DNA from: Patescibacteria group bacterium
GTDB lineage: Bacteria; Patescibacteriota; Patescibacteriia; UBA10025; JAHIVO01
DNA length: 64,000 nucleotides
Assembly (NCBI GenBank): GCA_041660605.1
Contig: JBAZWB010000002.1
Span: 170,408-234,407, forward strand
Direction of reading: 5' to 3'
Part shown: piece by piece, positions 1 to 63,902 of the stretch
Layout: every line of letters begins with the position of its first letter
How positions within the stretch are numbered: position 1 is the stretch's first letter
Notes under the pieces: generated by a model
What the model was told of the DNA's origin: nothing
The model's database searches: none
What the model saw: only the letters and a program-made list of their open reading frames with translations
Program-made: the position numbers and the translations under genes

Positions 1-978
1 TATATCCATAATCCAATTTTTATTAAAATGGGCGCGACGGGCAATTTCGTTATACATAAAACTGGCTCCGTAATCGGATAAAAAGAACGCTTCCACCCGT
101 CTGTTACGGACATAGGAGTGATAGCGAGCCTGTGTTATTATCCTACGGAAATTTGGTTTAGGCTTCACTTTATTAAGTGCCCATTGATATTCCTCTTTGA
201 TTTTCTGCGGCGAGCTTAAATGGATGAGCTCATTTAACCCTTTTTTATCGCTCCAAGCTTGCCTAATCCGGGCAATTATATTGGAAAAGGTATAGGCCTT
301 GCTTGTTGCCAGGCCGCGATTGATATAGGCGTATGCATCCAGATGGCGTTCAATGATTTTTTTCGCCTGAGGAGACGGTTTAGATAAATTCTCTCGCTTC
401 TTTTTAAACTCCTTGGCAATTTTCATCAGCTTCCATTTCTCATTAGCCACGTCAGTCATCTGCCGCGGATCGGTAAATATTAAAACAATTTTTCGGAAAT
501 CAGGATGATCGGCCGGCAGATATTTAACTAGCTCAATTTCAATGGTCGTTTCAAAATACTCATCAAGCGGGTACTGCGTGTACCACGAGCATGTCACATA
601 ACGGTACTTGTTTAACTGGGTATCCAGCACTTCACTAATCTCCTGGTTGGATTTTTTCGCCCAATCAATTTTTTTTAGCTGCAACCCGCGCCGGTACAGA
701 TCATTGTATTTAACAAATTCTTTTCGATAGAAATGCTCCAGCCAATTTTTCTTATACTTCACGTAATCAATGATTTCCTTTTCAAAAGCATCATACTCCT
801 TCGCCGGCCAGTACATCATGTGATGAAGATACGTTCGGTTCACCATATGATGTTTAAAACCGATAGCGGCTGAAATTTTGTGGGAAAATCCCGAATTGAT
901 TATAAACCGCAAAAAAATTGGCAGCTTCCCGGAGGGCTTGATCCGCCAATCGCCGTATCGTTGCACTGCTGAGGACAT
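1..978 (-). CDS. partial CDS (N-terminal part only; the 3' end runs off the window start). Helical protein, possibly a further paralogue of the downstream swivel-domain array
   Basis: An uninterrupted minus-strand frame runs from ATG at 976-978 (MSSAVQRYGDWRIKPSGK...) to position 1 with no stop. The Lys/Tyr/Trp-rich helical composition resembles the N-terminal halves of the array members. The C-terminus is not visible. Confidence 0.4.
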   Translation of the reverse strand, partial: MSSAVQRYGDWRIKPSGKLPIFLRFIINSGFSHKISAAIGFKHHMVNRTYLHHMMYWPAKEYDAFEKEIIDYVKYKKNWLEHFYRKEFVKYNDLYRRGLQLKKIDWAKKSNQEISEVLDTQLNKYRYVTCSWYTQYPLDEYFETTIEIELVKYLPADHPDFRKIVLIFTDPRQMTDVANEKWKLMKIAKEFKKKRENLSKPSPQAKKIIERHLDAYAYINRGLATSKAYTFSNIIARIRQAWSDKKGLNELIHLSSPQKIKEEYQWALNKVKPKPNFRRIITQARYHSYVRNRRVEAFFLSDYGASFMYNEIARRAHFNKNWIMDI

Positions 979-1000
979 ATTATTTATTATTAATATTAAA

Positions 1001-2566
1001 CTATTTCAATATTACCTTATTATAGCTACTTTTTAATTTCCGGACAATTCCCTGCTCCATATCCATTTCTACGCGATCGCCCGTTTTTAATACCCGGGTG
1101 GCAACTTTACAGCCGATAATGCAAGGTTTTTTTAGTTCACGTGATATAATCGCCGCATGGCAAGTTAAGCCTCCCTCATCAGTTATCACTGCTTTGGCGC
1201 GCCGCAAATAAGGGATAAAATCAGGTCGGGTCATAGTGGTGACTAAGATATTGCCGGAAGAAAACTTTTGCTTATTGACATCCATCACTACCTGCACTAC
1301 GCCGGTCATTTTTTTTACCGGCGCGCTGGCCACCTGTCCGGTTACAATCATGGATTTTATTTTTACTCCCAGCTTGAAAGCTTTGAATATTTGCCGGGCC
1401 TGACGGCCATAATAAATTGTTGGAATGGCCTGATGGCCATGCTTGACGATGGCATAAACAGATAACTTCCTGCGCGCTTTGGCAATTTTTTGATCAAGGC
1501 GCCGGCCGTTCAGCAATAAATTCTTAACCTCCTTATATAAATAGTATTTAACCTCCCAAATGTTTATGGCAAAACGCCTGGCCAGCTCTTCGCAAAAAAG
1601 AGTAATAAAATGACTGGCTATAAGCATATGCTGTTTGCGATCATCAATCAATTCTCCAAAATACCGCACTAAGAATAAATGCAGCCTTAAATCGGGGGAG
1701 AAATGATATTTTGCCGATATTTTATGATGTTCTTGCCTTAGACGTACGGTTTTTGTATTTAAACTGGCAAGTTCATTTTTTAACTTTTGATATGAATTTT
1801 TTCTAATTTCCTCCGTTATCTCCAGGAAATACTGTTCTCTGGTAATAACCCGCGTTTGTGCAAATGAATTCCTGGTCCAAAAATAAAGCTTCTGCAGCCT
1901 GGTGATTTCTTTCAGCCATTTTTCCGAAGAGATATCCGAGAGACTGATTTTTTTTCGCTTTTTAATCTGGCGATGCAGGCCTAAACAAATTTCCAAAAAC
2001 AACCGCCGCTCTTGTTCAATAAAGCTTAGATGTGCTGGCATAGCCATCAGGCTGGTAATCTCCCTGGCTGCGGCTTCAGGTACTGCCGGCAATTCATCCG
2101 CAACCAACGGTTCCAGATAATATGCAGTGAAAACGTCCACGCACTCCCAAGCAGCGCCGAATCGCAAAAAATCAATATAACTCTGCATAAAAGACTCATA
2201 GATCCGCCAGAACTTCTGGTTTGATAATTTATGCTTATTTTTTCCAAAATACTGCCCCAAGGTTACAAACTTTTTTCTTTTTTTTACCTGACGCTTTTTT
2301 AAAGCTAAATACCGATTATTTATTTTTGATTTGTTAAAAATATATTTATACACCTCATACTTCTCCTGCTCCGGCGTTTCTTCGTAGAAAAAATCATCCT
2401 GGAAAGGCAAAACGGCAATTGTCAGATATTTCGGATGGAAATACCTGGACTGCTCAATGAAAGCATGCATTATTTGCGCAACACAATGATAAGCAGCCGG
2501 CGCTTTCTCCTCCCACCAGCTGATATTTTTAATAGTTTTCTGTAACTGAGCAAAATCCATAAGCAA
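1001..2566 (-). CDS. PEP-utilizing-enzyme mobile (phosphohistidine swivel) domain protein, array member 1 (521 aa)
   Basis: The C-terminal block TRPDFIPYLRRAKAVITDEGGLTCHAAIISRELKKPCIIGCKVA..VEMD matches the PEP-utilizers swivel domain with the catalytic His. The N-terminal ~430 aa are helical with no PPDK_N ATP-grasp motifs. Confidence 0.8.
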   Translation of the reverse strand: MLMDFAQLQKTIKNISWWEEKAPAAYHCVAQIMHAFIEQSRYFHPKYLTIAVLPFQDDFFYEETPEQEKYEVYKYIFNKSKINNRYLALKKRQVKKRKKFVTLGQYFGKNKHKLSNQKFWRIYESFMQSYIDFLRFGAAWECVDVFTAYYLEPLVADELPAVPEAAAREITSLMAMPAHLSFIEQERRLFLEICLGLHRQIKKRKKISLSDISSEKWLKEITRLQKLYFWTRNSFAQTRVITREQYFLEITEEIRKNSYQKLKNELASLNTKTVRLRQEHHKISAKYHFSPDLRLHLFLVRYFGELIDDRKQHMLIASHFITLFCEELARRFAINIWEVKYYLYKEVKNLLLNGRRLDQKIAKARRKLSVYAIVKHGHQAIPTIYYGRQARQIFKAFKLGVKIKSMIVTGQVASAPVKKMTGVVQVVMDVNKQKFSSGNILVTTMTRPDFIPYLRRAKAVITDEGGLTCHAAIISRELKKPCIIGCKVATRVLKTGDRVEMDMEQGIVRKLKSSYNKVILK

Positions 2567-2604
2567 ACTTATAAAAAATTATGCACCTAAATTTTTGAAT
2601 AATT

Positions 2605-4062
2605 TTATTTGACTATTTTTATCAGCCCATGGTTCGCCCTGACTTCAACAATCATGCCATCTTTCAACACTTTCGTGGCGATTTTTGTGCCGATAACGCA
2701 GGGCAGGCCAAGTTCACGCGCAACAATAGCAGCATGACAGGTGATACCGCCTTCATCTGTCACAATGGCGGAAGCCTTTTTCAGGGCGGGTAAAAACTCC
2801 GGCCGGGTCATTGAAGCGACAATCACGTCGCCCTGGCCTACCTTGCTCAGGGAGGCGATGTTGCGGCAGACCGTAACGCGCCCGACCGCCGTACCGCCAT
2901 TGGCCACCGAACCATGTATGGAGCTGCCGTCGGCGGCTGAGCGCTGTTCCACTGCGCGGATCAAAGGCAGAAGCTTGCGGTATTGTTGGCCACTAACTTT
3001 ATATTCTCCGTCTTTTTCCATTAAAATCAACATGCCCAGCTGCCTTTGCCGCAATAGAGGTGATATTGATTTTAACGCCTTTATTGAACGAACTGACAAT
3101 GATTCGTTTACCCCAAGCTGATAAATTTGTTCAACAGTTAAATCAGACCGGCGGGCTAATTCACGCGCCACTAAAGCTAAGTATGAAACATTTCTAAGGA
3201 TGTTAGCTTTCCTGCTATCCTGCCAAATCGTGGTAAATTCAATCAAATTGATAAATTCTCTAAGCGACCGGCTAATTTTCAGACGGGCGAGCAAACGCAG
3301 TTTTTTCCTGCGAACAGACCCGGGATTAACCAGCTTGATTGATCGAACAGCTTCAAGCCGGCGCATAAAGTCATTGATCGTTAATTTTTTCGGGCCGCTA
3401 TAGCTGTTTTGAATCCAGAAATATTTTTTAAGATGCACGGCAAGGTTTTTCTTGCGTAACGACCTCGGCAAACGGGCGATACGCTGTAAAGCGGTTTCCT
3501 GCTGACCGATAAAAGACGCTTCCGCCGGGGTAGTCAAAAGGTTATAAATCTCATTAAAATCCGGCTGTACGCCGATCGACCGCAGCAGCATAGATTTGAA
3601 TTCCTTTTCTGCGGCGACACTGATTATCTCAACTAAATGACCGACTCCTACCGTATCTATCTGCGCCTGCACAGAATGGCGAAAAAAATCCATTAACTCG
3701 TCCTCACTAAGACGGTGCAGCACTGTCTTGCTGATTTTTACTTGAAACGCCTCAGCTTCTGAGATTTTTTTATCGTATAATCGTTTAACCTTTACCAAGT
3801 AATTTTTATCTCGCTTCAAAAGTATTTTTATCTTCTGCCAAATGGCGGCAATATCTGTATTCAAATAGGCCATCTCCCCGTAGCCATCACGATAATGGAA
3901 GAGGAAGCCGTGATAGCCGAAACCAAGATCATGCCTCATGTTAATACCGCTAATGGCCGAGGGGCCGAGAAATAGTGGCACAGCATTAAATCCCTGAACA
4001 TACCAGTCCAGATTTATGGCCTTTTTTATTTTTTTAAAATCATTCATTATAAAATTTTCCAA
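2605..4062 (-). CDS. PEP-utilizing-enzyme mobile domain protein, array member 2 (485 aa)
   Basis: The C-terminus TRPEFLPALKKASAIVTDEGGITCHAAIVARELGLPCVIGTKIATKVLKDGMIVEV matches the swivel domain. The N-terminus carries the shared motifs KKYFWIQNSY and IWQDSRK...ELARR. Confidence 0.8.
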   Translation of the reverse strand: MENFIMNDFKKIKKAINLDWYVQGFNAVPLFLGPSAISGINMRHDLGFGYHGFLFHYRDGYGEMAYLNTDIAAIWQKIKILLKRDKNYLVKVKRLYDKKISEAEAFQVKISKTVLHRLSEDELMDFFRHSVQAQIDTVGVGHLVEIISVAAEKEFKSMLLRSIGVQPDFNEIYNLLTTPAEASFIGQQETALQRIARLPRSLRKKNLAVHLKKYFWIQNSYSGPKKLTINDFMRRLEAVRSIKLVNPGSVRRKKLRLLARLKISRSLREFINLIEFTTIWQDSRKANILRNVSYLALVARELARRSDLTVEQIYQLGVNESLSVRSIKALKSISPLLRQRQLGMLILMEKDGEYKVSGQQYRKLLPLIRAVEQRSAADGSSIHGSVANGGTAVGRVTVCRNIASLSKVGQGDVIVASMTRPEFLPALKKASAIVTDEGGITCHAAIVARELGLPCVIGTKIATKVLKDGMIVEVRANHGLIKIVK

Positions 4063-4077
4063 TAAAATTAATTTATG

Positions 4078-5643
4078 TCAACTTCTCTTAATCACCGTAA
4101 CCACGCCGTGGTTGCCATTAACTTCTACAATGTCGCCGTTCCGCAGAACTTCAGTGGCGATCTTCGTGCCGATGACGCACGGGATATTTAACTCACGTGC
4201 GACTATGGCTGCGTGGCAGGTGACGCCTCCTTCGTTAGTAACAATGGCCGCCGCTCTTTTCATGCCCATAATATAATCCGGACGGGTCATCACGGCCACC
4301 AGCACGTCGCCAGGCCTGACATTTTTAGTTTCCGTAGCGCTTTTTACGATTCTGGCCGGTCCGCGCGCCACACCCCGGTTTGCCGACAAACCGCGAAAAT
4401 CATTGACTGCCTGCAAAGATCTTTTCTCAAAAATTTTCTTAAACGTCCCCCGGGCGTTGGAGGTAATTACTTCATACTTATCTGCTCCTAATTGCAGCCA
4501 TAGGCATTTTTTCCATCTGGCACGCGCTTCCTGCGGTGTCACTAGGGGCCTGGCAAAAAGCGAATCAACCTCCGGTGGCGCCAAATACTTCATCTCCTGC
4601 AGAGTAAATCCGAAGCGCCGGCCGATTTCTTTGAGCAGAATACTGCCGTAATGCGTGGACCAATAGGTCATTTTCTTACGATTGTCCTGCCACCAGGTGA
4701 AATCCTCGGAGATTTCCAGAAGCACACGGATTTTTTTTGGCGGATTAAGTTTCTTCAGTAATATTTTTTTCTCCTGAAGGCTGCGCTGAGGCGTAGCCAC
4801 AATCTGCCTGATCTGCTGGCCAATATTAATGCTGGATTTGAACACGGCCTTCAGCTCACCAACCCACTTATTTACATCCAGATAATTATTGTGGACATAG
4901 TTATTCTTACTCCAGAAATAGTCCTGCTCCTGCTTCTCTAGCAATTTTATAATAGCTGGATAGTAACGAACGATTTTTTGTAGATTTTTTATTGGGCGCT
5001 TCCGAAAGGCTCGACTCAAGACTGGGATTCCTTTGACTCTATTCGCTATACGCAATAAGCTGACCTCCGCTTCATTGATAAACGAATGGTGCACAGGAGC
5101 AGTAAGAACGGAAAAAAATCTGGATAACTGCTTCTCCAATCCCTTTGCTTTTAATACCATCATCAATTCTTTTTGGATCAGATAGTCAGTGCCCAGGGCA
5201 AAACCATCGATGATTGAACTGGATGTGACGAATTTCAAATCACGCCGGATATACTCATCGTACAATTTTACTAAATTTTCATTATCTAATTGTCTCAAAT
5301 GCTCCCAATCAGTGTCCAGACAAAACCGGTAAAACGCCGCTTCATCAGCAGACCAACGCTTCATTAATCCCTTGGTGAAATGCTTTTTATGCATGGCCAA
5401 ATCAGTCAACCGTTTCGCAATGCGATCAATGTCCTCCTGATCAATATACCAGTCCGATTTATCCTGTTCAAACAAGCCGAAGTGGCTGGTGGCATGGCAA
5501 CCAAACTTGCGCGCTTCTGACGCCAACTCGGCCATGGAAATGAGAAAAATAAAATGCGGGCTGCCATCAAACCGCTGATGGTACCACTTTTTACCCTGGA
5601 TTAGAGATAAATTCCTTTTTATCAACCCCTTAACTGGCTTCAT
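4078..5643 (-). CDS. PEP-utilizing-enzyme mobile domain protein, array member 3 (521 aa)
   Basis: The C-terminus TRPDYIMGMKRAAAIVTNEGGVTCHAAIVARELNIPCVIGTKIATEVLRNGDIVEV matches the swivel domain. The N-terminus has the motifs DYFWSKNNY and WWQDNRK. Confidence 0.8.
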   Translation of the reverse strand: MKPVKGLIKRNLSLIQGKKWYHQRFDGSPHFIFLISMAELASEARKFGCHATSHFGLFEQDKSDWYIDQEDIDRIAKRLTDLAMHKKHFTKGLMKRWSADEAAFYRFCLDTDWEHLRQLDNENLVKLYDEYIRRDLKFVTSSSIIDGFALGTDYLIQKELMMVLKAKGLEKQLSRFFSVLTAPVHHSFINEAEVSLLRIANRVKGIPVLSRAFRKRPIKNLQKIVRYYPAIIKLLEKQEQDYFWSKNNYVHNNYLDVNKWVGELKAVFKSSINIGQQIRQIVATPQRSLQEKKILLKKLNPPKKIRVLLEISEDFTWWQDNRKKMTYWSTHYGSILLKEIGRRFGFTLQEMKYLAPPEVDSLFARPLVTPQEARARWKKCLWLQLGADKYEVITSNARGTFKKIFEKRSLQAVNDFRGLSANRGVARGPARIVKSATETKNVRPGDVLVAVMTRPDYIMGMKRAAAIVTNEGGVTCHAAIVARELNIPCVIGTKIATEVLRNGDIVEVNGNHGVVTVIKRS

Positions 5644-5663
5644 AATATATTATTATATGAAAA

Positions 5664-6251
5664 CTACGAATATTTTTTTATTAATAATCTGGCTGCTTCT
5701 CCAATATCCTCAACGCGGTAAAAAATAAATTTTCCTTGAGTAGTTATTCCCCACTCCAGTATAACATTTTTCAAGGTTATTTTCCTCTCAGCCTGCAATA
5801 CTTTTTTACGTTCAGCCGATGTTAAAACATTCCGATCTCCAACTACCGCAGTCAGCTTACCTCGTTTATAAAAATAACTGGCTTCCACTTGCCCATGCCG
5901 CATCAAGTCAACAATCGCACCGCGCCGTGCTTCTATGACAGTACGGTTTTTTTCCAGCAGGACGGTTCCGGCTTTTTTCCACTTCCATGACGGGTAAATA
6001 ACGAATAAAGCTTTGTTCTTGTGTTTTTTCTGCAGTTTATCAACCACAGAAGGCACATCTTTTTTAGCCACCCAGTTGGCATAATGATTCATCCATGGGC
6101 CATTAAACACTTTCACGGTCCTGATGGTCCAGCCGACATAATCTTTAATCCTGGCTAAATTTTTTATCTCCCGGGAACTGCTGACAAACTGCCAGGTCGG
6201 ATGGGGAAATTCGTATTTATCAATTATTTTTAAACCTTGGTAAATGGTCAT
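5664..6251 (-). CDS. hypothetical protein (195 aa) lying between array member 3 and the IS200-like transposase
   Basis: Complete ORF tightly spaced with its neighbours. It has no recognisable motif and is possibly cargo of the adjacent insertion element. Confidence 0.45.
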   Translation of the reverse strand: MTIYQGLKIIDKYEFPHPTWQFVSSSREIKNLARIKDYVGWTIRTVKVFNGPWMNHYANWVAKKDVPSVVDKLQKKHKNKALFVIYPSWKWKKAGTVLLEKNRTVIEARRGAIVDLMRHGQVEASYFYKRGKLTAVVGDRNVLTSAERKKVLQAERKITLKNVILEWGITTQGKFIFYRVEDIGEAARLLIKKYS

Positions 6252-6269
6252 AGCTCGGGGCCTTTCGGA

Positions 6270-6833
6270 TTATAAAACTTTAGTTTTATCAAACTTACCA
6301 TGTACGCCGGTATAATCAATAATGGGATAATAATACTCGGTATTATTTAAAAATTCCTTCCCGAGCTTATTTTTATAGTAATTATAACTGGAAAACATAT
6401 AATTGCCATTAGCAGCTGCATAGCCGTGTTTGACTGGATTATGGTGGATGTAATTAAATCTTTTAAAAAAATCTTTTTCCTCATGAATACAGCGGTCCCA
6501 ATAGTTCCACCAAATCTTATGACCCGGAGTATTATCAAGCTTATTTATATCATATGAACTCCCGCCATTAATAAATTTAATAATTTTACTCAATTCAGTG
6601 CCTTTACCCAAGGCGAATAGAATATGGTAATGGTTAGGCAATGCTACCCAGGCATGGAGTGTAATTTTAAACTTTCTTCTGGCCTGTTCTAATCGATTAA
6701 CTAATAGTATAAGCTTTTCTTTTGAATTAAAATATTTCTTCTTATCAAACGTACGCGCGGCAACAAAATAAGTTTGGTTATCCAGATATAAATGGAAAGG
6801 AATGTGCTTTTTAAATTTATTTTCTTTTATCAT
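6270..6833 (-). CDS. IS200/IS605-family (Y1 HUH) transposase-like protein, TnpA or REP-associated tyrosine transposase type (187 aa)
   Basis: The HUH motif is present in VALPNHYHILFALG. The segment YIHHNPVKHGYAA matches the IS200-like Y..NPVKAG signature. The size is typical of IS200 TnpA. Confidence 0.65.
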   Translation of the reverse strand: MIKENKFKKHIPFHLYLDNQTYFVAARTFDKKKYFNSKEKLILLVNRLEQARRKFKITLHAWVALPNHYHILFALGKGTELSKIIKFINGGSSYDINKLDNTPGHKIWWNYWDRCIHEEKDFFKRFNYIHHNPVKHGYAAANGNYMFSSYNYYKNKLGKEFLNNTEYYYPIIDYTGVHGKFDKTKVL

Positions 6834-6854
6834 AAATCTATCTTCGGCTTCACT

Positions 6855-6912
6855 CAGATTAAAAAAGATTTATAAACCGAAACCCGACTTCGGACTATCA
6901 AGCTTTAGCTTG
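6855..6912. repeat. two short hairpin-forming palindromes (CCGAAacccgacTTCGG and CAAGCTttAGCTTG) immediately 5' of the HUH transposase gene
   Basis: Both inverted repeats are read directly from the sequence. IS200/IS605 ends carry subterminal hairpins that TnpA recognises. Confidence 0.4.
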
Positions 6913-6924
6913 ATAAAAAACTCC

Positions 6925-8376
6925 TCACAGCTTCCTAATGACCCCTTTATTAGCGTCAATTTCCACTCTATCCCCATTTTTAAAAACTTTTGTGGCCACC
7001 TTTGTGCCTACAATACAGGGTATGCCCAGCTCTCGGGAAACAATGGCCGCGTGGCAGGTCAGGCCGCCAGTATCAGTTATTATTGCCTTCGCACGTCTAA
7101 TGGCGACGATATATTCCGGAGCTGTCATGCTGGATATCAGGATTTTTCCACTGGGAAATTTTTTGATATCATTTGGATTATTAACTATATAAACCTGGCC
7201 GCGTATATTTAATTTTCCGGAGCTGACCACTAATCCAGAAATAACTTTCTCTTTCAGCGTGGTCTCAGGCGCCTCCCAGAATTTTTTTATAAAATCGGCT
7301 GCCGCCTGCGGTCGTAGGACGCTAAGTTTATTCTTGGCAAACCTGGCAACTTTAAGGTGCCATTTGCTTCTAAGAAATAACCGCTGCTTATCGACTGCTT
7401 TTAAAGGCAACCGTATTTCGTCAAGATAAGCGTAATGGAATGAACTGAATGGCATATGATTGCGCCGGGCAATCTCCCTTACTAGCGTCTCAAAATAATG
7501 TAAATACTGAAAAATTAATTTTTTACGCTGGTCCTGCCACCAGATGCAAAAACTTAATTTATCGGCCGTCTGTATTAACTTTTTATCTAGCTGATAAAGT
7601 TTGATAATCTTCTTTTTTCTTTTCTTAATCTCCATCAAACCCGCTTTTATCTTACTAATTTCGTTTAAACCATTGCTAACTAGCCTCTTCTTTTCTCTTA
7701 ATCGCTTGAGAAAATATTCTACTGGTAGTACCCTCGTGCTAAAATAACTGTTTTCCAGCCAAAAATATCGTTGCTGATGATTGTTAAGCAGATTTTTAAA
7801 ATTATTCTTTCTATAACTAGCAATAAGCTTCAATAAATCAATTTCTTCTTCCTGATAAAAAGACAGGCGTTCAGGCGCGGCAATTACTGAAGATATTTCA
7901 TTTAGCTCATTCTTTGACAAATGCTCCTTTATCAACATCCGATTCAAGATACTTTCTCCGCCGTACGCCGCTAATTCCGGGACAACTCCCGCTTCCCAAA
8001 ACTTGAAAAGCAGGTTGTTGTATTTTTTCCACAAATCAACCAATGCTCTATCGCTCATTGCTGAGAAATTATCAAGAGAAATTTTTTTATGGAAGGCTGA
8101 TAAATCAACTACTGCTTTATTCCAGGCAAACCAAATTGATTTCCCGCGGACAGTTCCGACCAGTTTTTCGAAAATACTGGCTCCGACTGCTTCGAGTTTT
8201 TGGCGTTCACATATAAATAGTCCCCTGGTCCCGTTGAAAATTACATAAGATTCCGGCCATAAATAATGATGCAGCCTGCCTGGATAATCATTGTAAATTA
8301 CCAGCCAGTGGGTGATATACATCAAGCGAAGCGGAATGGGACCCCAGCGAAATATATTTTTTTTAATATCAAGCAT
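6925..8376 (-). CDS. PEP-utilizing-enzyme mobile domain protein, array member 4 (483 aa)
   Basis: The C-terminus TAPEYIVAIRRAKAIITDTGGLTCHAAIVSRELGIPCIVGTKVATKVFKNGDRVEIDANKG matches the swivel domain. The N-terminus has QRYFWLENSY and IWWQDQRK...EIARR. Confidence 0.8.
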   Translation of the reverse strand: MLDIKKNIFRWGPIPLRLMYITHWLVIYNDYPGRLHHYLWPESYVIFNGTRGLFICERQKLEAVGASIFEKLVGTVRGKSIWFAWNKAVVDLSAFHKKISLDNFSAMSDRALVDLWKKYNNLLFKFWEAGVVPELAAYGGESILNRMLIKEHLSKNELNEISSVIAAPERLSFYQEEEIDLLKLIASYRKNNFKNLLNNHQQRYFWLENSYFSTRVLPVEYFLKRLREKKRLVSNGLNEISKIKAGLMEIKKRKKKIIKLYQLDKKLIQTADKLSFCIWWQDQRKKLIFQYLHYFETLVREIARRNHMPFSSFHYAYLDEIRLPLKAVDKQRLFLRSKWHLKVARFAKNKLSVLRPQAAADFIKKFWEAPETTLKEKVISGLVVSSGKLNIRGQVYIVNNPNDIKKFPSGKILISSMTAPEYIVAIRRAKAIITDTGGLTCHAAIVSRELGIPCIVGTKVATKVFKNGDRVEIDANKGVIRKL

Positions 8377-9697
8377 TTTTATTTATTTTTATAATAATCC
8401 CCTTATTAGCATCTACTTCCACTTTATCTCCATTTTTCAAAACCAGCGTGGCAATTTTCGTACCAATAATACAGGGTTTTTTCAGCTCCCGTGCAATAAT
8501 AGCGGCGTGGCAGGTGAGCCCACCTTCATCGGTCACAATCGCAGCTGCCTTGCGAATCGCGGGTAAATAATTTGGAGTGGTCATGTGTGCAACCAATATA
8601 CCACGTAATTTGAAACGCCGTATATCAGCAGAATTTCTGACTATTTGAACTCGTCCAATAATATTTTTTTCAGGGCCAAAAGCAACTTGGCCTCGTAAAT
8701 CAATAGAGGATAAGGAAATTTTTGGTGACTCCCGCAGCATTTTCGCACCGTGACCGGAAAAAGAAAAGGCTTTCCCATTCTTTATCATAAACCCATACAA
8801 CTGCAGACGTTTTTGGATTTTTCGCAACGGAACAGCATCTCCGCGAAGGCAACCGGCAATTTCTTCAGCCGACATCGCGGTGACCTTTTCCCAACCCAGA
8901 CGACAGCGCCTGGCGCTCTCTTTCAGCAATCGCCGATAGTTATACTCTGCCTTCATAAATTCCTCTGCCTCTAGATTCCGATCGTGTGATAAAATTTTCA
9001 TTTCCGTAACGAGTGGCCCACGTAAAGAGATTGAATGCTTTTTCGAAATACTTGATGATCGAATATTTTTTGAATCCCTAATAATTTGCCGCTCCGTGAG
9101 CTCGTCACCGATGAAAAAAAAGCTTCCAAGCCAATAATATTTTTCCAGAATTTTTCTTACTTGGGTTTTTAAAATGCGCTTATTACTGATGGATGCCAGC
9201 TGTGCAACTTCATGATTATAGCTAGTTAATGAAGTTTGGTCATTAAAAAACATTTGAGAATATCTTTTACCGTATTTTTTCAGCAATTGCCGGTTTAGAT
9301 AGTCCGTATAGAGTGTACCCAGGCCTAGAAAACTGTTTACCCGCGCATACAAATCATCAGCCGCGAGCAACCTGACGGCTAGTTGTCCATTGGTAAGATT
9401 ATGGCGCTGCTGGCTAATTTTTATTAATCCTGAAATACTTTTTCGATATTCCTTGCGCCTCATCCTGATATATCCGTTTACTCCGCCCAAAGCTTGGTGA
9501 ATACTCCTATACAATTGCGCGAGTTCACGCTGATAGGTGATAAAACTAAAATGAGCATGATCAATATATTTATAATTCCACAAAAGATGAGGGAGACCAG
9601 AAAACACGCGCATATAGTGGTTGATACACTTAAATACCCCATTATGCCTCGCTAAGTAGGTACTTGCTTTTGAGCCAAATTTAATCCAGGTGCCCAT
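8369..9697 (-). CDS. PEP-utilizing-enzyme mobile domain protein, array member 5 (442 aa)
   Basis: The C-terminus TTPNYLPAIRKAAAIVTDEGGLTCHAAIIARELKKPCIIGTKIATLVLKNGDKVEVDANKG matches the swivel domain. Its start overlaps the stop of member 4 by 8 nt. Confidence 0.8.
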   Translation of the reverse strand: MGTWIKFGSKASTYLARHNGVFKCINHYMRVFSGLPHLLWNYKYIDHAHFSFITYQRELAQLYRSIHQALGGVNGYIRMRRKEYRKSISGLIKISQQRHNLTNGQLAVRLLAADDLYARVNSFLGLGTLYTDYLNRQLLKKYGKRYSQMFFNDQTSLTSYNHEVAQLASISNKRILKTQVRKILEKYYWLGSFFFIGDELTERQIIRDSKNIRSSSISKKHSISLRGPLVTEMKILSHDRNLEAEEFMKAEYNYRRLLKESARRCRLGWEKVTAMSAEEIAGCLRGDAVPLRKIQKRLQLYGFMIKNGKAFSFSGHGAKMLRESPKISLSSIDLRGQVAFGPEKNIIGRVQIVRNSADIRRFKLRGILVAHMTTPNYLPAIRKAAAIVTDEGGLTCHAAIIARELKKPCIIGTKIATLVLKNGDKVEVDANKGIIIKINKNA

Positions 9698-9732
9698 ATT
9701 ACAAAATCTTATTTATTAACCCATGCCTGCTT

Positions 9733-9830
9733 TATTTTCATATTTTTTTCACTACTCCTTTGGTGGCATCCACCTCTACTCTATCCCCATTTTTTGCCGA
9801 TTTTGTCCCTGAAGACAAGCGAAGTGCTGA
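9733..9830 (-). pseudogene. 3'-terminal remnant of another swivel-domain paralogue (encodes ...LRLSSGTKSAKNGDRVEVDATKGVVKKI*)
   Basis: The reverse complement of 9733-9806 translates to KNGDRVEVDATKGVVKKI followed by a stop. This is the same C-terminal consensus seen in the intact array genes, and no upstream body is present. Confidence 0.5.
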
Positions 9831-9914
9831 CTGAAGGGGTACAAAATCGAGTATCCCGCTGACCCCTGAAGCTGAGCCTGCCGAAGCTGAAGGGGATAGC
9901 GGGAAAAAACTGCC

Positions 9915-11006
9915 TCATATTTTCCTAACAACCCCATTATAGGCATCAACCTCTATTTTGTCACCATCCTTGAACACTTTTGTGGCAATTTTCGTACCAA
10001 TAATACAGGGAATACCGAGCTCTCGCGCTACTACTGCCGCGTGCGAAAGCATCCCGCCCTCATCCGTGACTATAGCGCTGCAACGTCGGATAAACCTGAT
10101 ATCATCCGGATGAGTCATGGGCGAGACCAAAATAATTTTATTTTTTCGGGCTGGGCGTTTGTGTGATTTCGCCAGCAGAATATTAAAAACTATGCCTCGC
10201 ACTATTCCCGGATGTGCCACATGGCCGCTGACAACCTTTTGCCCTCTGGTGTTAAAAAAATTATTTAATAAACTCCTGGCTGCACGATTATCTGCCTGCA
10301 CAGTTTCCTGATTATTCCGCAATAAATAGACAAACCCGCGTGTCCGCTGGCGTAACCCTCTAATTTGTTTTTTAGATAAAGCCCTGCCATTCAGAAAAAA
10401 ATTCATTTCATTTCTCGTCATAGCTAGCAGTAATTCTGGCTTGAGATGCAGGGGCTTGCCAAGCTGACCCATAGCAGTACGCAGCCAGCCTTCAACCACC
10501 GAGTAAAACCTGCCAACCTGATCACGCTGTTTAGCGATTAACACGACAGATTTCCTTGGCAGTACGCGGGTTTCCTGGGCATCACCGAGATAGCGCATCA
10601 AGGCACTATAAATTCCCAAACTGATGAAGTAGCGCGGAAATTCATTAATGGCCAAACTAATAAATTTTTTTGGATTTTTTCTCGCACCTGATGCGGACCG
10701 CCGCAGCCGCAAAGAAATTTGGTGATACATGCTTTGCGCTAATTTAAGTGTAGTACTGAGCCAGTGGTGGCTGTTTTGCAACGCTTGTCCAACTTTTCTG
10801 CCAATGTCTTCCTGATTCATTAACGTCAAACATTCTCTCCTGTCGCCAACGCCTCCGATTATGGTATACCGGAAACCAATTGCCCGCTTTAACTGACGAT
10901 AATAAGCTTCGCTAACGCAACTCAATGTAAAAATAGAAATTGGACGCCTTACTCCAGTAGTTAAATTATACTTTTTAATAAAAGAAGCTGATAATAGGCT
11001 ACCCAT
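9915..11006 (-). CDS. PEP-utilizing-enzyme mobile domain protein, array member 6 (363 aa, shorter N-terminal domain)
   Basis: The C-terminus THPDDIRFIRRCSAIVTDEGGMLSHAAVVARELGIPCIIGTKIATKVFKDGDKIEVDAYNG matches the swivel domain. Confidence 0.75.
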   Translation of the reverse strand: MGSLLSASFIKKYNLTTGVRRPISIFTLSCVSEAYYRQLKRAIGFRYTIIGGVGDRRECLTLMNQEDIGRKVGQALQNSHHWLSTTLKLAQSMYHQISLRLRRSASGARKNPKKFISLAINEFPRYFISLGIYSALMRYLGDAQETRVLPRKSVVLIAKQRDQVGRFYSVVEGWLRTAMGQLGKPLHLKPELLLAMTRNEMNFFLNGRALSKKQIRGLRQRTRGFVYLLRNNQETVQADNRAARSLLNNFFNTRGQKVVSGHVAHPGIVRGIVFNILLAKSHKRPARKNKIILVSPMTHPDDIRFIRRCSAIVTDEGGMLSHAAVVARELGIPCIIGTKIATKVFKDGDKIEVDAYNGVVRKI

Positions 11007-11008
11007 AA

Positions 11009-12085
11009 TTATTTTTGTAACAATTTTACTTGCCCACGCGTTGCATCCACCTCCACCTTATCACCATCTCTTAAAACTTGAGTGGCGATTTTCGTACCGA
11101 TGACGCAAGGGATCCTTAATTCGCGGGAAATAATTGCAGCATGCGATGTAATTCCGCCCTCATCAGTAATAATAGCTTTTGCCCTCTGGTATGCCAAGAT
11201 AGTATCAGGGCGAGTCATCTCGGTTACTAAAATTTCATTTTTTCTGAATTTTCTGATTTGATTGGAGATATTATGCGATTTGTGGAGTACCAACCTTACA
11301 CTACCCCTGACTTTTCCTTTGTACGCTATTGTACCAGTAATTGCTTGTTTTGAATTAGTAAAATAATGATTAACCCATTTCCATATTTTTTTATATTCCT
11401 GACCGGTTAAAATAATTTCCCGACCACCCATTTTCCATAAAAGATATCCCTTTTTTCTACGCGAAATTAACTTTTGCGGAACACTTTTCCCTGTAAACAC
11501 TTTATTTATCTCTTTGCTGGTATAAAAATATAAATCTTGAGCGGCAATATTGAAACTTTTCCCAACTGTTGTTAGCAATTCTTTAAAAAGCAGATAAAAA
11601 ACTTGCTCGCCGGCCTTCCGCAGTTTAAAACGCAAGCGGCCAAGCTGATGCATTGTTTTTTTCTCCTTGGCACTGGCCAATGATTCAAATTTTTTTAGCC
11701 TCACCTCCTCAGTCCAGGTATAAATATTACTGTATCTATTGAGCAAGGAAACCATTTCCTCAAATAAAACCTTCAGCTGTCTATTACTCAACTTTTTGAT
11801 ATCAGTATTCCCGTATTTTTTGATGAATTGCCCAATTTGAAAAATAATTCGATCAGCATTTTTATGATACGCAGCAAAAGCGCCTGCCTGACTAAAAAAA
11901 CGGTGGCCTTTCTGGATTTCCTCATTATAACGGCCATTAATAAAATACAGATGTAAAACCGATTTATTATAAAAACACAGTAAATTATCATTTAAAATTA
12001 AATGGCGCTTATCAGTCAGCCAAAAAAGCGGTAACAAATATTCACGCGCCCAAAATTCTACTGATTTAATTTCTGATAAGCTCAT
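11009..12085 (-). CDS. PEP-utilizing-enzyme mobile domain protein, array member 7 (358 aa)
   Basis: The C-terminus TRPDTILAYQRAKAIITDEGGITSHAAIISRELRIPCVIGTKIATQVLRDGDKVEVDATRG matches the swivel domain. Confidence 0.75.
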   Translation of the reverse strand: MSLSEIKSVEFWAREYLLPLFWLTDKRHLILNDNLLCFYNKSVLHLYFINGRYNEEIQKGHRFFSQAGAFAAYHKNADRIIFQIGQFIKKYGNTDIKKLSNRQLKVLFEEMVSLLNRYSNIYTWTEEVRLKKFESLASAKEKKTMHQLGRLRFKLRKAGEQVFYLLFKELLTTVGKSFNIAAQDLYFYTSKEINKVFTGKSVPQKLISRRKKGYLLWKMGGREIILTGQEYKKIWKWVNHYFTNSKQAITGTIAYKGKVRGSVRLVLHKSHNISNQIRKFRKNEILVTEMTRPDTILAYQRAKAIITDEGGITSHAAIISRELRIPCVIGTKIATQVLRDGDKVEVDATRGQVKLLQK

Positions 12086-13578
12086 GATATTTTTTTAACT
12101 ACGCCTAGCTTCGCATCCACCTCAACGCGGTCGCCGTCTTTTAAAACGCTGGTGGCCGTCTTCGTGCCAACAATACAGGGTTTTTTCAGCTCCCGGGCAA
12201 CGATGGCTGCGTGGCAGGTGATGCCGCCCTCGTCAGTGACAATCGCCCGGCACTTGCGCATGGCCGGCACAAAATCAGGGTGCGTGGTAACCGCAATCAT
12301 AATATCGCCCTGCCTGATTTTCCGTAAGTCATGCTTGGTATAGATTACCTGTGCCGAACCCACCACCTGCCCGGGCGAACCCGCCATCCCGTGCAGAATA
12401 CGCGTTTCGTGAATACACTGGCCGCCAAGTTCCTGCTTGATCATTTTTTTAAGCTCTGGGCCTTGCATCACGACAACCTCGCCCCCATGCTTCCGCAATA
12501 ATCCATAAGCTTTAACCCGTGTCTTTAATACTGTTTTGTCCACTGGTAATTTTCCCTGCGTAAGGTAGGCAATCATTTCCTTTCGGATTAGATGGGTTAT
12601 TTCTTTAATAGTAACGCCTGCCCGACGGGCTAACTCATGATAAAGCGGTTGGATATTGTGGCTACCTAAACGGCGGTAATCATCGCGCTGATCCTTAATA
12701 AACGACATTTCATGCGCCATAATCAATAGTTCTCGCTGGCGGGGAGTAGGATACAGCTCATGCAATATTTTCTTGAACATCCGCTGGCGGTAGGGGAAAC
12801 GTTTTCTTAGCTGGCTTAACTCAAGCTTTAGACTAGCAATATTCTTCCGGAGCAACTTGTTTAATTCCGACATAAAGTATTCCCTTGTCCATGGCTTATC
12901 ATTAATGTCATAACATGGCAGCCAGCGGTACTTCTGCCAGTGGAGATTAATCAGGCGGCCAATAGCTGCTTGCTTCAGCCGAGGCTGGCTTTTTGTCCAA
13001 ACAGCCAGCTTAAGTAAATTTTCATGTTCGCTAATTACAGCATTCTTTTTTTCCGGTGAAAATATTATCTCAACAATTTCCTCCGTATCCGACACGCGCT
13101 GGTGCTGACGGAGGAGCTTTTGCAGCTCTTGTTCGGCGACCTGCGAAATAAAAGGTTCCGTAATAAATGGCACCCAGATCGGGCCATTGAAAAAATCCAG
13201 ATGCAGCCGATCAAACGCTAAATAACGTCTTCTCAGCTCTCTCCATGATAGTTTAGTCAGGTTACCGTTGGCCAGCTTCTGCGCGCCGCTGCCATATCTA
13301 ACCTGCCATCGCCGGACCAACTGCATATAGTAATGAAAAGTTGGCAGGTTTTTACAGGTGCCGTAATATACTTTTTTGGTAAAACGCTGCCATTCTGCAT
13401 TTTCATAATATATCGTATGATTGCCACGTTCGGGAGCGACCAGGTTGTTCTGCAGACTGGCATGAAAACGCTTCCGGTAGAAATCCGAAATAAAAACCCG
13501 GATGACAATTTCGAACCGCTGGCTGCAGAATTTCCGGGAAAAATAATGGGTCCAAACTATTTTTTTATCTTTACTCAT
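12082..13578 (-). CDS. PEP-utilizing-enzyme mobile domain protein, array member 8 (498 aa)
   Basis: The C-terminus THPDFVPAMRKCRAIVTDEGGITCHAAIVARELKKPCIVGTKTATSVLKDGDRVEVDAKLG matches the swivel domain. The start codon overlaps the stop of member 7 in an ATGA arrangement. Confidence 0.8.
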   Translation of the reverse strand: MSKDKKIVWTHYFSRKFCSQRFEIVIRVFISDFYRKRFHASLQNNLVAPERGNHTIYYENAEWQRFTKKVYYGTCKNLPTFHYYMQLVRRWQVRYGSGAQKLANGNLTKLSWRELRRRYLAFDRLHLDFFNGPIWVPFITEPFISQVAEQELQKLLRQHQRVSDTEEIVEIIFSPEKKNAVISEHENLLKLAVWTKSQPRLKQAAIGRLINLHWQKYRWLPCYDINDKPWTREYFMSELNKLLRKNIASLKLELSQLRKRFPYRQRMFKKILHELYPTPRQRELLIMAHEMSFIKDQRDDYRRLGSHNIQPLYHELARRAGVTIKEITHLIRKEMIAYLTQGKLPVDKTVLKTRVKAYGLLRKHGGEVVVMQGPELKKMIKQELGGQCIHETRILHGMAGSPGQVVGSAQVIYTKHDLRKIRQGDIMIAVTTHPDFVPAMRKCRAIVTDEGGITCHAAIVARELKKPCIVGTKTATSVLKDGDRVEVDAKLGVVKKIS

Positions 13579-16530: not shown

Positions 16531-16673
16531 ATAAAATTATGAATTCTGCCTAAAAATAAAAACATTTAGCTCTACTTATTCGCCCTTCTTTTCCTTTATT
16601 CTCATTAAAAAACCAAAAAAAAGCAAGCCCCAAGCAGCCATGCCGGCAATTGTGATTTTTTAATAAAGTAAAT

Positions 16674-18374: not shown

Positions 18375-18394
18375 ATAATTATTATTTAATATTT

Positions 18395-19744: not shown

Positions 19745-19761
19745 AGAGATGCTATTTTAAT

Positions 19762-22944: not shown

Positions 22945-22979
22945 GGGGAATAAATTGCTACTTTTTTAGTAATAGCTTC

Positions 22980-36824: not shown

Positions 36825-36918
36825 GGGAGAGGGATTAATACATTCACCCTTGGGCTATTAATCAGTCCTTCCTCTCCCTCCGGGAGAGGAACCGAAGGTG
36901 AGGGGGTTATACTACAAA
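36803..36918. repeat. copy B of the ~107-bp palindrome-containing repeat. It begins exactly at the leuS stop codon and extends to the DUF559 start
   Basis: It contains CTCTCCCCATGGGAGAGGG and TTCCTCTCCCTCCGGGAGAGGAA inverted repeats. It is a direct repeat of copy A, and the pair brackets the DUF559 gene. Confidence 0.6.
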
Positions 36919-39900: not shown

Positions 39901-40047
39901 AGGATAGGGGAACATATCCAAAACATAAAATTTGGGAGACGAGCTGTTTTCTTTCGTGTCCCAAATTCCTTCCTGCTCCCATTGCTTCTGCCACTTTTTT
40001 TCTACCCGACTGCTGTCGTATTTTATATTCATAACTGATTGAATCAT
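36907..40047 (-). CDS. leuS: leucine--tRNA ligase (LeuRS) carrying an inserted alpha/beta-hydrolase domain (1046 aa)
   Basis: The HIGH motif is HVGHPEGY and the KMSKS motif is QKMSKSRGN. The CP1 editing domain is present ([19 protein letters not shown] ... [15 protein letters not shown]), as is the [19 protein letters not shown] segment. The protein is ~190 aa longer than typical bacterial LeuRS because of an insertion at aa ~450-640. Confidence 0.9.
38127..38700 (-). other. alpha/beta-hydrolase (YdeN/RBBP9-like serine hydrolase) domain embedded in LeuRS between the CP1 editing domain and the catalytic core
   Basis: The segment [14 protein letters not shown]...[13 protein letters not shown]...[12 protein letters not shown]...MPGKSHFSE has an HG oxyanion motif, the GHSLG nucleophile elbow, and Asp and His in the canonical triad order. 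It is in frame and flanked by LeuRS sequence on both sides. Confidence 0.75.
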
Positions 40048-63560: not shown

Positions 63561-63635
63561 GGTGGACCTCAGGGGGATCGAACCCCTTACCTCTTCCATG
63601 CCATGGAAGCGCTCTACCAATTGAGCTAGAGGCCC
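63560..63635 (-). tRNA. tRNA-Ala (anticodon GGC), CCA encoded
   Basis: The reverse complement folds as a canonical cloverleaf: GGGCCUC / GCUC-AAUUGGU-AGAGC / CUUCC-AUGGCAU-GGAAG / AGGUA / AGGGG-UUCGAUC-CCCCU / GAGGUCC-A-CCA. It has the G3:U70 Ala identity pair. Confidence 0.85.
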
Positions 63636-63868: not shown

Positions 63869-63902
63869 GAATCTAATTTCCGTCTGAGTCCCGCTTTAAT
63901 TA

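Follow-up and report, generated by a model that had tools for sequence, protein, structure and literature searches.

Two-component dikinases of the HpeHI, CreHI, and PpsAB (phenylphosphate synthase) kind consist of an ATP-grasp-only subunit and a subunit that combines an RPH-type substrate-binding domain with a C-terminal swivel domain carrying the catalytic His. The action of such an ATP-grasp in trans on acceptor/His subunits has been established experimentally for all three, and the presence of Met instead of the regulatory Thr two residues before this His is a criterion of two-component dikinases (PMC12167813). The two subunits are encoded by linked genes as one-to-one pairs, HpeH, CreH, and PpsA are about 45% identical to each other, and the hosts are aromatic degraders. 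In RPH (PDB 5FBS and 5HV1), a single chain contains all three domains, and the R666A and E667A substitutions eliminate only the second of the two phosphotransfers (PMC4844700). In PEP synthase and PPDK, a central swivel shares one chain with PPDK_N and a PEP-utilizers_C TIM barrel.

A locus with 11 tandem paralogs from a Patescibacteria bacterium, contained in a 64,000-nucleotide stretch of contig JBAZWB010000002.1 (hereafter, the window) and its flank, is predicted to be a new variant among these two-component systems. As in HpeHI, CreHI, and PpsAB, the genes for an ATP-grasp-only subunit and for proteins with an RPH-type substrate-binding domain and a C-terminal swivel are linked, but eleven H-type genes correspond to one canonical ATP-grasp gene, and there is an extra 195-aa mini ATP-grasp (mini-grasp) without a counterpart in the known systems. 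The residue two positions before His is Met in RPH and HpeH but Thr, as in PEP synthase, in the array swivels, and the hosts here are Patescibacteria and DPANN with tiny genomes. The array proteins show no full-length PRK08296 match: these NCBIfam models (PpsA/HpeH-like) cover only their last 90 to 135 residues, with 42 to 100 bits against cut-offs of 578 to 730. We found no description of these arrays in the literature, where “rph-like” genes of CPR appear only within a resistome survey (PMC8651080). Comparable arrays are common across Patescibacteria and DPANN; their annotations there go no further than “PEP-utilizing enzyme” or mistake them for PEP synthase or rifampin-resistance genes.

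Array organization and the swivel domain

Ten of the paralogs are complete and one is cut by the window edge (Table 1). The genes are co-directional and tightly packed, with gaps of -11 to +38 nt except for two of 91 and 217 nt, and the array occupies ~16.5 kb, or roughly 1.7%, of a ~1 Mb genome. The original prediction, which concerned positions 2605-8376, missed two genes there, the ORF with the ATP-grasp fold and the RAYT-like transposase, and overlooked the eleventh paralog at the window edge (member 0). The frame of the latter is open across 1-951 and contains EIARR; on the extended contig (L102), the full gene spans 14666-16150 and its product contains PF00391 and matches the family HMM with 1.3e-80. 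An RNA gene or pseudogene in region 1-1000 was considered and rejected given that Rfam yielded no match and the region belongs to an ORF running past the window edge. Promoter and terminator scans gave counts near the shuffled expectation and were uninformative.

Table 1. Coordinates (window positions) of the array genes and associated features
Feature	Coordinates	Strand	Details
Member 0	1-978	-	N-terminal 326 codons of eleventh paralog (494 aa in full); runs off left edge of window
Member 1	1001-2566	-	521 aa; RPH-type acceptor domain and C-terminal swivel (both predicted); PF00391 at residues 436-506; LIDDRK, ELARR, GGLTCHAA
Member 2	2605-4062	-	485 aa; YFWIQNSY 3400-3423; WQDSRK 3208-3225; catalytic His443 codon 2734-2736
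Member 3	4078-5643	-	521 aa; YFWSKNNY 4897-4920; WQDNRK 4675-4692; EIGRR 4615-4629; His477 codon 4213-4215
Mini ATP-grasp	5664-6251	-	195 aa; candidate nucleotide-binding partner of swivel domains in trans
RAYT-like transposase	6270-6833	-	187 aa; Y1 (IS200-type) homolog within array; NF047646 1.5e-30, PF01797 1.4e-7
Member 4	6925-8376	-	483 aa; YFWLENSY 7744-7767; WQDQRK 7522-7539; His442 codon 7051-7053
Member 5	8369-9697	-	442 aa; YYW and ESARR; lacks WQDxRK
Swivel remnant	9740-9809	-	remnant of swivel-domain coding sequence in 217-nt gap between members 5 and 6
Member 6	9915-11006	-	363 aa, short form; PF00391 at residues 290-358
Member 7	11009-12085	-	358 aa, short form; PF00391
Member 8	12082-13578	-	498 aa
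Member 9	13575-15071	-	498 aa; YYW, WQDERK
Member 10	15061-16530	-	489 aa; first gene of array; LHDWRK

PF00391 is the sole domain match in all 10 complete members (E = 3e-26 to 9e-24) and ends 4 to 15 residues before the C-terminus; no match to PF01326 or PF02896 was detected at E ≤ 1 in any complete array protein, and regex searches for GGKxxN[LMI] and [VI][AS]VRSS came up empty for every member. The claims that these proteins lack PPDK_N signatures and a TIM barrel and that the swivel is strictly C-terminal thus hold, as does the absence of the PF01326 match that had been named as potential counterevidence. The catalytic His lies in a T/SxxGGxxxH motif of the TDEGGxT[CS]H type within ~50 residues of the C-terminus in the same 10 members, with T462, G465, G466, and H470 invariant, and is preceded at position -2 by Thr (GGxT[CS]H) in nine of these and by Leu in member 6. 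Within the window, the paralogs share 51% identity in the swivel compared with ~18% elsewhere.

The closest counterpart of the swivel is the one in PEP synthase (8a8e, E = 3e-47), and the GGxT[CS]HAAI motif with the regulatory Thr is common to both. This similarity would fit array proteins that receive their phosphate from phosphoenolpyruvate, or through a PEP synthase, PPDK, or Enzyme I-like enzyme of full length, and that play a phosphocarrier or regulatory role, and one comparison locus (L017) encodes a full-length PPDK near a family member. We consider such charging improbable. In contrast to PEP synthase and PPDK, the array proteins have a C-terminal rather than central swivel and no TIM barrel, and their acceptor domain differs in fold; that domain appears to keep an RPH-like architecture and an acid/Lys phosphotransfer motif. 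Moreover, no PEP-binding TIM barrel was found in the window or the extended contig, and what recurs beside the family is a PPDK_N-only protein rather than one with a TIM barrel.

The N-terminal domain

The N-terminal domain of the array proteins is predicted to be a mainly helical, RPH-type acceptor domain. The likeness to the rifampin-binding domain of RPH suggested by the original prediction is borne out by the profile of alignment A1, which matches RPH residues 606-866 (E = 4e-25), although identity is only ~15% and the array proteins, unlike the single three-domain chain of RPH, contain no ATP-grasp. Residues 69-357 of member 7 align with positions 524-820 of the 827 in NF004882, an RPH-like “PEP synthase” model. 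The RPH models NF041857 and NF000283 give the array proteins 32 to 67 bits against cut-offs of 999 to 1700, and we found no indication of rifamycins as an array substrate. The description of the domain as uncharacterized is accurate insofar as no Pfam or NCBIfam model covers it, but not with regard to its correspondence to RPH.

Three motifs proposed for this domain, YFWxxNxY, WQDxRK, and E[LI][AG]RR, are shared at the positions claimed and are conserved beyond chance in an alignment of 43 sequences that takes in Patescibacteria and DPANN homologs: W244, D320, and R322 do not vary, and N247, Y249, W318, Q319, K323, E339, and R343 reach a conservation of 90% or more. Their distribution among the members differs in part from that first described. 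[KQ][KRE]Y[FY]W is found in members 2, 3, 4, and 9 and additionally in member 5, but not in member 8, which has YRW. WQDxRK is present in members 2, 3, 4, and 9, as claimed, and the degenerate versions reported for the others amount to weaker D-x-R-K/D forms in members 1, 8, and 10. E[LIS][AG]RR occurs in members 1, 2, 3, 4, 5, and 8. The spacing between YFW and WQD is ~68 to 79 residues, not ~55, and a further shared motif, PxxLSFxxxEE, had been missed.

The A1 profile sets “lqDerk” on Y665-R666-E667-Y668-P669-K670 of RPH, and thus WQDxRK on its R666-E667...K670 phosphotransfer motif, in a part of the alignment that has low confidence. In this low-confidence arrangement, Q-D-x-R-K faces R-E-Y-P-K, with the acid and Lys conserved, the Arg three positions later, and Gln at Arg666. 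Such a correspondence with acceptor-site residues, along with the mainly helical RPH-type character of the domain and the lack of a match to any nucleotide-binding family, speaks against the suggestion that the domain is a novel nucleotide-binding fold, which would make each array protein a self-sufficient kinase. The one observation that favors this suggestion is the absence of a fused ATP-grasp from the polypeptide; the arrays are, however, accompanied by separate ATP-grasp genes, and we regard self-sufficient kinases as highly improbable.

Members 5, 6, and 7 lack WQDxRK, which counts against the assignment of all array proteins to split dikinases and would be expected if much of the array were evolutionary debris or non-catalytic binding proteins of a birth-and-death family with few active members. 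Three other features point the same way. The swivel remnant shows 60% to 69% identity over 14 to 20 aa to six members (tblastn) and represents an extra copy in repeat family D2. A RAYT-like transposase resides within the array; it is kept beside the mini-grasp in L003 (79% identity) and L004, and no REP-like palindromes that could explain its presence were found in 1-17000. Finally, the window and L003 arrays show no one-to-one orthology despite 75% identity of their mini-grasps. Nevertheless, all eleven reading frames are intact, the catalytic His is invariant, the swivels are 44% to 58% identical, orthologs of member 3 elsewhere are 76% to 83% identical, and the short form (~360 aa; members 6 and 7) recurs in many other arrays. 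We therefore consider an array made up largely of debris or non-catalytic proteins unlikely.

Candidate ATP-grasp partners

The original prediction invoked a phosphodonor supplied in trans and proposed a search for an orphan PPDK_N gene. Such a gene was found 4 kb outside the window: a 314-aa PF01326-only gene (1e-92) on the same strand, 4.0-4.9 kb left of the window and 3.5 kb downstream of the last array gene. Its product carries GGKGANL, VAVRSSATAED, and DIEWAF..TQTRPITTL, that is, all PPDK_N signatures, as in PEP synthase and PPDK. Between this gene and the array lie a HAD gene, a 353-aa gene, and an opposite-strand 469-aa gene, a non-contiguity that counts against the split-dikinase interpretation. 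Among loci found through the acceptor-swivel family, at least nine (L018, L033, L035, L038, L040, L041, L049, L057, and L075) contain a single stand-alone PPDK_N (~266-337 aa; cut by the contig end in L038) abutting an array of one to nine paralogs, and three (L051, L085, and L092) encode PPDK_N-acceptor-swivel fusions of 825-855 aa. Together with the orphan gene and the HpeHI, CreHI, and PpsAB precedent (PMC12167813), these arrangements back donation in trans. No ATP-grasp of either type was detected within the 5-10 kb flank examined around the large arrays of L019, L023, L036, and L047, which tells against the split-dikinase interpretation. As a rough apportionment, we lean slightly toward the canonical PPDK_N being the only or main donor of the array.

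The second candidate is the mini-grasp, whose two-lobed ATP-grasp fold was revealed only by structure prediction. Used as a single sequence or as a 31-sequence profile, it has no match in Pfam, NCBIfam, or PDB sequences, and none of the 31 family members matched PF01326 in hmmscan. Comparison of a close-homolog profile (A2) with the L018 PPDK_N, an L019 204-aa ORF, an L017 285-aa ORF, and an L016 372-aa ORF using hhalign was not significant. A 119-sequence profile did align with the PPDK_N profile over residues 83-183 (hhalign P = 4e-5, probability 70%). This alignment runs collinearly along the C-terminal two-thirds of the PPDK_N domain, and visual inspection pairs IEA..G...L..G with IEAGWGQGESIVSG and LEW with DIEW. 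The two-lobed fold is shared with PF01326 domains such as that of HpeI, but the mini-grasp is missing the helical insert and has ~120 residues fewer. We compared the nucleotide-site residues Lys22, Arg92, Glu323, Gln335, and Arg337 (PPDK numbering): R44, E107, and E166 reach at least 95% conservation among the 119 family members, the family has no conserved equivalent of Lys22, and R179/E181 stands in for the Q335/R337 pair in the window-type mini-grasp.

The altered nucleotide site is one of the reasons to ask whether the mini-grasp is a donor at all. It could instead be an enzyme of (deoxy)nucleotide metabolism, or a nucleotide acceptor of the swivel phosphate (NDK-like or reverse-PPDK-like), with the canonical PPDK_N alone charging the array. 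Mini-grasps without swivel neighbors occur in nucleotide-metabolism clusters (L005, L012, and L013) and beside an HD-domain gene (L001); a subgroup 46% to 48% identical is found in ThyA-DHFR-[mini-grasp]-(deoxyribosyltransferase-like or Ham1)-Tmk clusters in three genomes, and other copies adjoin HD, NUDIX, or cytidylate-kinase-like genes. The mini-grasp also coexists with a PPDK_N of the canonical type in L009, L100, and the window genome, which makes it less likely to be the missing donor that replaces PPDK_N. An array-embedded 204-aa ORF in L019 was rejected as a mini-grasp, being HAD-like. Comparison of the window and L003 arrays identified no dedicated acceptor subtype flanking the mini-grasp.

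Against a non-donor role, the mini-grasp is embedded on the same strand in nine arrays (window, L003, L004, L007, L008, L009, L011, L014, and L015), its stop and start codons frequently overlap with those of adjacent genes, and in L003, L004, L007, and L011 no canonical PPDK_N is present within 8-10 kb. In L011, it is followed by a swivel-only gene, and in P0189 and P0203, it is fused to a His-bearing swivel, with the order and linker (grasp, ~40 aa, G.GASPG swivel) copying the ATP-grasp-swivel part of PEP synthase. The predicted fold finds its best structural matches in the ATP-grasps that act as donors in RPH and HpeI. By the same rough apportionment, the mini-grasp may be a donor or co-donor, a possibility to which we give appreciable but less than even weight; a non-donor role also seems less likely than not.

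Predicted mechanism and significance

Taken together, the array proteins likely belong to split ATP-dependent dikinases of the RPH, PpsAB, CreHI, and HpeHI kind as their H-type subunits, each with a phosphohistidine swivel domain behind a predicted RPH-type acceptor domain for small molecules. Because the ATP-binding half that they lack is specified elsewhere, a single ATP module probably works with many diversified substrate modules. In the proposed cycle, the separate ATP-grasp protein would bind ATP, and the swivel His (His477 in member 3) would attack the beta-phosphate, forming phospho-His with release of AMP and Pi. The swivel would then return to its own N-terminal domain, where the WQDxRK helix may bring the phosphohistidine and phosphate into place for transfer onto a hydroxyl group of the substrate bound there; Asp320 would play the part of RPH Glu667 and Lys323 that of Lys670, with Arg322 shifted. 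One or two ATP-grasp donors would thus supply eleven acceptor subunits, and the combination of alike swivels with diversified acceptors would make the array a battery of kinases for different small molecules that share an ATP module. A HAD phosphatase and the 353-aa protein recur with these arrays, which suggests that the phosphate is later removed or passed on. With respect to physiology, we can only surmise that phosphorylation traps scavenged metabolites or inactivates toxic ones.

More tentatively, Patescibacteria and DPANN might possess a modular dikinase platform, in which a shared stand-alone ATP-grasp charges the near-identical swivels of up to ~11 fast-turnover acceptors, each specific for a small molecule, allowing episymbionts to trap scavenged metabolites or inactivate toxins of hosts or competitors. 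The 195-aa mini-grasp would then be the smallest known dikinase-type ATP-grasp and a second nucleotide site through which the platform connects with (deoxy)nucleotide metabolism, in the role of either an alternative donor or a phosphorelay acceptor.

Interpretation of the arrays as split dikinases with shared ATP-grasp donors would assign a concrete biochemical function to a large “dark” gene block in these lineages. It would extend the recently defined two-component dikinase subfamily well past aromatic catabolism and predicts a combinatorial design, with one donor and many acceptors. The 195-aa ATP-grasp family, for which no Pfam or NCBIfam model exists, would offer a minimal scaffold of practical use, and its association with thymidylate-synthesis clusters poses a question of its own on nucleotide metabolism in nucleotide-salvaging organisms.

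Composition of the array and domain architecture of its proteins

The array lies on a 960-kb contig of Patescibacteria (CPR) and runs on the minus strand from position 16530 to the left edge of the window as a co-directional, closely packed series of genes, with intergenic gaps mostly of -11 to +38 nt and two exceptions of 91 and 217 nt. It includes 10 complete paralogs (members 1 to 10; 358-521 aa) and member 0, which became complete when the contig was extended 5.9 kb leftward (L102, where window position x = 15644 minus the L102 coordinate). Members 6 and 7 represent a short form that also recurs in other arrays. The swivel-coding remnant in the larger gap suggests that one paralog was lost by deletion or decay. 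A RAYT-like gene, with no REP-like palindromes found near it, adjoins a 195-aa ORF with an ATP-grasp fold, denoted here mini-grasp; this adjacency is also seen in L003 (79% identity, 4-nt overlap) and L004, two of the loci compared (L numbers).

Features of the array, its extended contig, related loci and the rest of the window
Feature	Location	Strand	Remarks
Member 0 (eleventh paralog)	window 1-978; L102 14666-16150	-	open frame past position 1; 494 aa, complete with swivel on the extended contig
Mini-grasp	window 5664-6251	-	195 aa; NCBI WCV50_05060, 100% identity
RAYT-like Y1 transposase homolog	window 6270-6833	-	NF047646 at 1.5e-30; between member 4 and mini-grasp
Swivel-coding remnant	window 9740-9809		within the 217-nt gap, members 5/6
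HAD hydrolase	L102 16147-16749		overlaps member 0 (last array gene) by 4 nt
353-aa protein	L102 16766-17827		RHAE motif; one homolog gives a sub-threshold His_Phos_1 match
Stand-alone PPDK_N, 314 aa	L102 19624-20568 (4.0-4.9 kb left of window position 1)	array's strand	PF01326 at 1e-92
Mini-grasp subgroup	L005 8001-8591; L012 2903-3499; L013 10001-10588		between DHFR and thymidylate kinase
Mini-grasp-swivel fusions	L100 932-3640; L101 719-1687		347 and 322 aa
PTA_PTB phosphate acetyl/butyryl-transferase gene	L018 1917-2891		Nanoarchaeota array, among acceptor-swivel genes and a stand-alone PPDK_N
Large proteins	window 16674-32057	-	directly upstream of array; 566, 449, 1060 and 3025 aa; no Pfam assignment
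Leucyl-tRNA synthetase	window 36907-40047	-	1046 aa; alpha/beta-hydrolase domain (residues 455-639; PF06821 Ser_hydrolase, 2e-19) inserted after the editing domain
Signal peptidase II (Peptidase_A8) fused with PP2C-type phosphatase domain	window 51100-52362	-	420-aa ORF
Three clustered tRNA genes	window 63563-63975	-	sole Rfam matches in window

Among the large proteins encoded upstream, the 1060-aa one has a long hydrophobic N-terminal region and, by eye, has a repeated segment in common with the 566-aa one (…LLKHMFGD…QKQRRQ.Y…SNVGKWNL…); the 3025-aa protein has dockerin-like DxNxDG repeats and is rich in Cys. The hydrolase insert in the leucyl-tRNA synthetase is an unusual architecture.

The only Pfam match of each complete member is to PF00391 (PEP-utilising mobile, or swivel, domain; E 3e-26 to 9e-24), located at the very C-terminal end. 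Neither PF01326 (the PPDK_N ATP-grasp domain) nor PF02896 matched them at E<=1, and no array member contains the PPDK_N signatures GGKxxNL or VAVRSS. These matches bear out the original prediction that the proteins have a strictly C-terminal swivel and lack the catalytic partner domains. The N-terminal motifs that it described were also recovered: YFWxxNxY in members 2, 3 and 4 (YYW variants in 5 and 9, YRW in 8), WQDxRK in members 2, 3, 4 and 9 (weaker D-x-R-K/D forms in 1, 8 and 10) and E[LI][AG]RR in members 1, 2, 3, 4, 5 and 8. The spacing between the first two is about 70 residues rather than the predicted 55 or so, and the array proteins share a further motif, PxxLSFxxxEE. In an alignment of 43 sequences that included homologs from other Patescibacteria and DPANN archaea, W244, D320 and R322 (numbering of member 3, MFA6098887.1) are invariant, and conservation is 90% or more at N247, Y249, W318, Q319, K323, E339 and R343, indicating that the motifs are real.

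There is no Pfam or NCBIfam model for the N-terminal domain. As judged by profile comparison, it is no orphan fold and matches rifampin phosphotransferase (RPH): positions 237-496 of the ten-paralog profile align with residues 606-866 of Listeria RPH (E 4e-25), in agreement with its earlier likening to the rifampin-binding domain, and the suggested alternative of a novel nucleotide-binding fold finds no support. In member 7, matches to NCBIfam RPH-like 'PEP synthase' models continue into the N-terminal domain; the same pattern has been described (PMC12167813) for HpeH, which is the substrate/His subunit of the two-component dikinase HpeHI. The profile alignment places WQDxRK opposite RPH Y665-R666-E667-Y668-P669-K670, within a low-confidence stretch. 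RPH uses Glu667 to hold its catalytic His825 and Arg666 to bind the phosphate being transferred, with Lys670 in the same hydrogen-bond network; the R666A and E667A substitutions abolish rifampin phosphorylation and leave the ATP-side half-reaction intact (PMC4844700). Compared with the RPH motif, both the acidic residue (D320) and the Lys (K323) are retained in the array family, whereas the Arg (R322) is located three positions later. We read WQDxRK as a putative acceptor-site phosphotransfer motif, a reading based on this low-confidence part of the HMM alignment.

Stand-alone ATP-grasp genes beside acceptor-swivel arrays

The original prediction had suggested looking for an orphan ATP-grasp gene, and one was found near the array. 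Beyond the left edge of the window, the rest of member 0 is followed by genes for a HAD hydrolase, a 353-aa protein, a 469-aa protein on the opposite strand and a 314-aa PPDK_N protein. The latter bears GGKGANL, VAVRSSATAED and DIEWAF...TQTRPITTL and stops right after TQTRPITTL, exactly where the swivel linker would start. A gene for a low-complexity protein (>460 aa; no Pfam match) starts 1 nt past it.

A stand-alone PPDK_N beside acceptor-swivel arrays is a general arrangement. Among 80 metagenome loci retrieved via the acceptor-swivel family, with ORFs classed by HMMs, a single stand-alone PPDK_N (~266-337 aa; truncated by the contig end in L038) is located beside one to nine paralogs in L018, L033, L035, L038, L040, L041, L049, L057 and L075. 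In L051, L085 and L092, PPDK_N, acceptor and swivel are fused in proteins of 825-855 aa. No ATP-grasp was found within the 5-10 kb flanks of the large arrays L019, L023, L036 and L047. In two archaeal loci, L016 and L017, family members are bordered by TrmB-type regulators.

A mini ATP-grasp family within the arrays

The mini-grasp ORF falls inside the interval covered by the original prediction, where it went undiscussed. It had no sequence matches in Pfam, NCBIfam or PDB, profile searches included, and Foldseek returned ATP-grasp enzymes only (probability 1.0), with RPH among the best. In hhalign, a profile of 119 mini-grasp sequences aligned with a PPDK_N profile (residues 83-183; probability 70%, P 4e-5); in this alignment, IEA..G...L..G pairs with PPDK_N IEAGWGQGESIVSG and LEW with DIEW, and, by eye, DYVGWTIRT is like PPDK_N DYVAVRSS. 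Conservation across the family is 95% or more at R44, E107 and E166. Unlike PPDK_N, the mini-grasps lack a conserved equivalent of Lys22 and have R179/E181 for the Q335/R337 pair. We regard mini-grasp as a new ATP-grasp family, a by-product of the study of the array.

Genomic context ties mini-grasp to swivel domains. Inside arrays with as many as nine acceptor-swivel paralogs (the window, L003, L004, L007, L008, L009, L011, L014 and L015), it is encoded on the same strand, and overlaps between its stop or start codon and those of the neighboring genes are frequent. In L011, a swivel-only gene follows it. In two protein clusters, P0189 (347 aa) and P0203 (322 aa), it is fused to a His-bearing PF00391 domain with the order and linker of PEP synthase. 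Next after one fusion come a membrane-like 254-aa ORF and a stand-alone PPDK_N, and in P0245 (403 aa), a mini-grasp-like domain is duplicated in tandem.

Other contexts have no separate swivel gene within 10 kb: in L001 and L006, mini-grasp adjoins an HD-domain gene and NUDIX-domain genes occur in the vicinity, and in L101, the P0203 fusion is located beside cytidylate-kinase-like and HD genes. A subgroup with 46-48% identity, likewise at least 10 kb from any swivel gene, is part of ThyA-DHFR-[mini-grasp]-(deoxyribosyltransferase-like or Ham1)-Tmk clusters (L005, L012 and L013), a setting suggestive of a function in dTTP or nucleotide metabolism.

Mini-grasp and canonical PPDK_N co-occur in the window genome, L009 and L100, so the former is no simple replacement of the latter. 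No canonical PPDK_N was found within 8-10 kb of four mini-grasp arrays with well-covered flanks (L003, L004, L007 and L011). Given the precedent, the three-domain fusions and the intact catalytic signatures, we favor canonical PPDK_N as the predicted main donor to the array proteins; mini-grasp could be a co-donor or a nucleotide-handling module.

Probable split dikinases, acceptor diversity and candidate phosphatases

In architecture and inferred mechanism, the array proteins are similar to the H subunits of the two-component dikinases PpsAB, CreHI and HpeHI and to the C-terminal two-thirds of RPH, but they are not sequence members of these families: the PRK08296 and RPH models match the swivel only or far below cut-off, and the array swivel is PEP-synthase-like, with Thr at His-2. 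Also unlike the two-component dikinases, the array combines eleven H-type genes with one canonical ATP-grasp gene and one mini-grasp. We found no published description of such arrays in the literature searched, in which CPR 'rph' genes appear only as a resistome count (PMC8651080). The array is likely to be a split dikinase with the ATP-grasp acting in trans.

Swivel identity among the window paralogs averages 51% (44-58%), compared with ~18% for the acceptor domain and linker. The closest related array, L003, shares 75% identity in mini-grasp and 79% in the RAYT-like gene, whereas its acceptor-swivel genes show just 28-36% identity to any window member; orthologs of member 3 in other genomes are 76-83% identical. 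This pattern fits a constant swivel docking module for shared ATP-grasp partners combined with a changing acceptor repertoire.

Many arrays (window genome, L003, L008, L009, L019, L024, L036, L041, L047 and L064) include or end with a HAD hydrolase gene, in many cases along with the 353-aa family, a possible branch of the histidine-phosphatase superfamily. In L008 and L009, another HAD-like gene is located directly upstream of mini-grasp. Because these two families recur with the arrays, dephosphorylation is probably part of the pathway. Such dikinases have been suggested to trap scavenged substrates intracellularly by phosphorylation (PMC12167813). A possible kinase-phosphatase pairing would suit a phosphate that is added transiently for activation or trapping.
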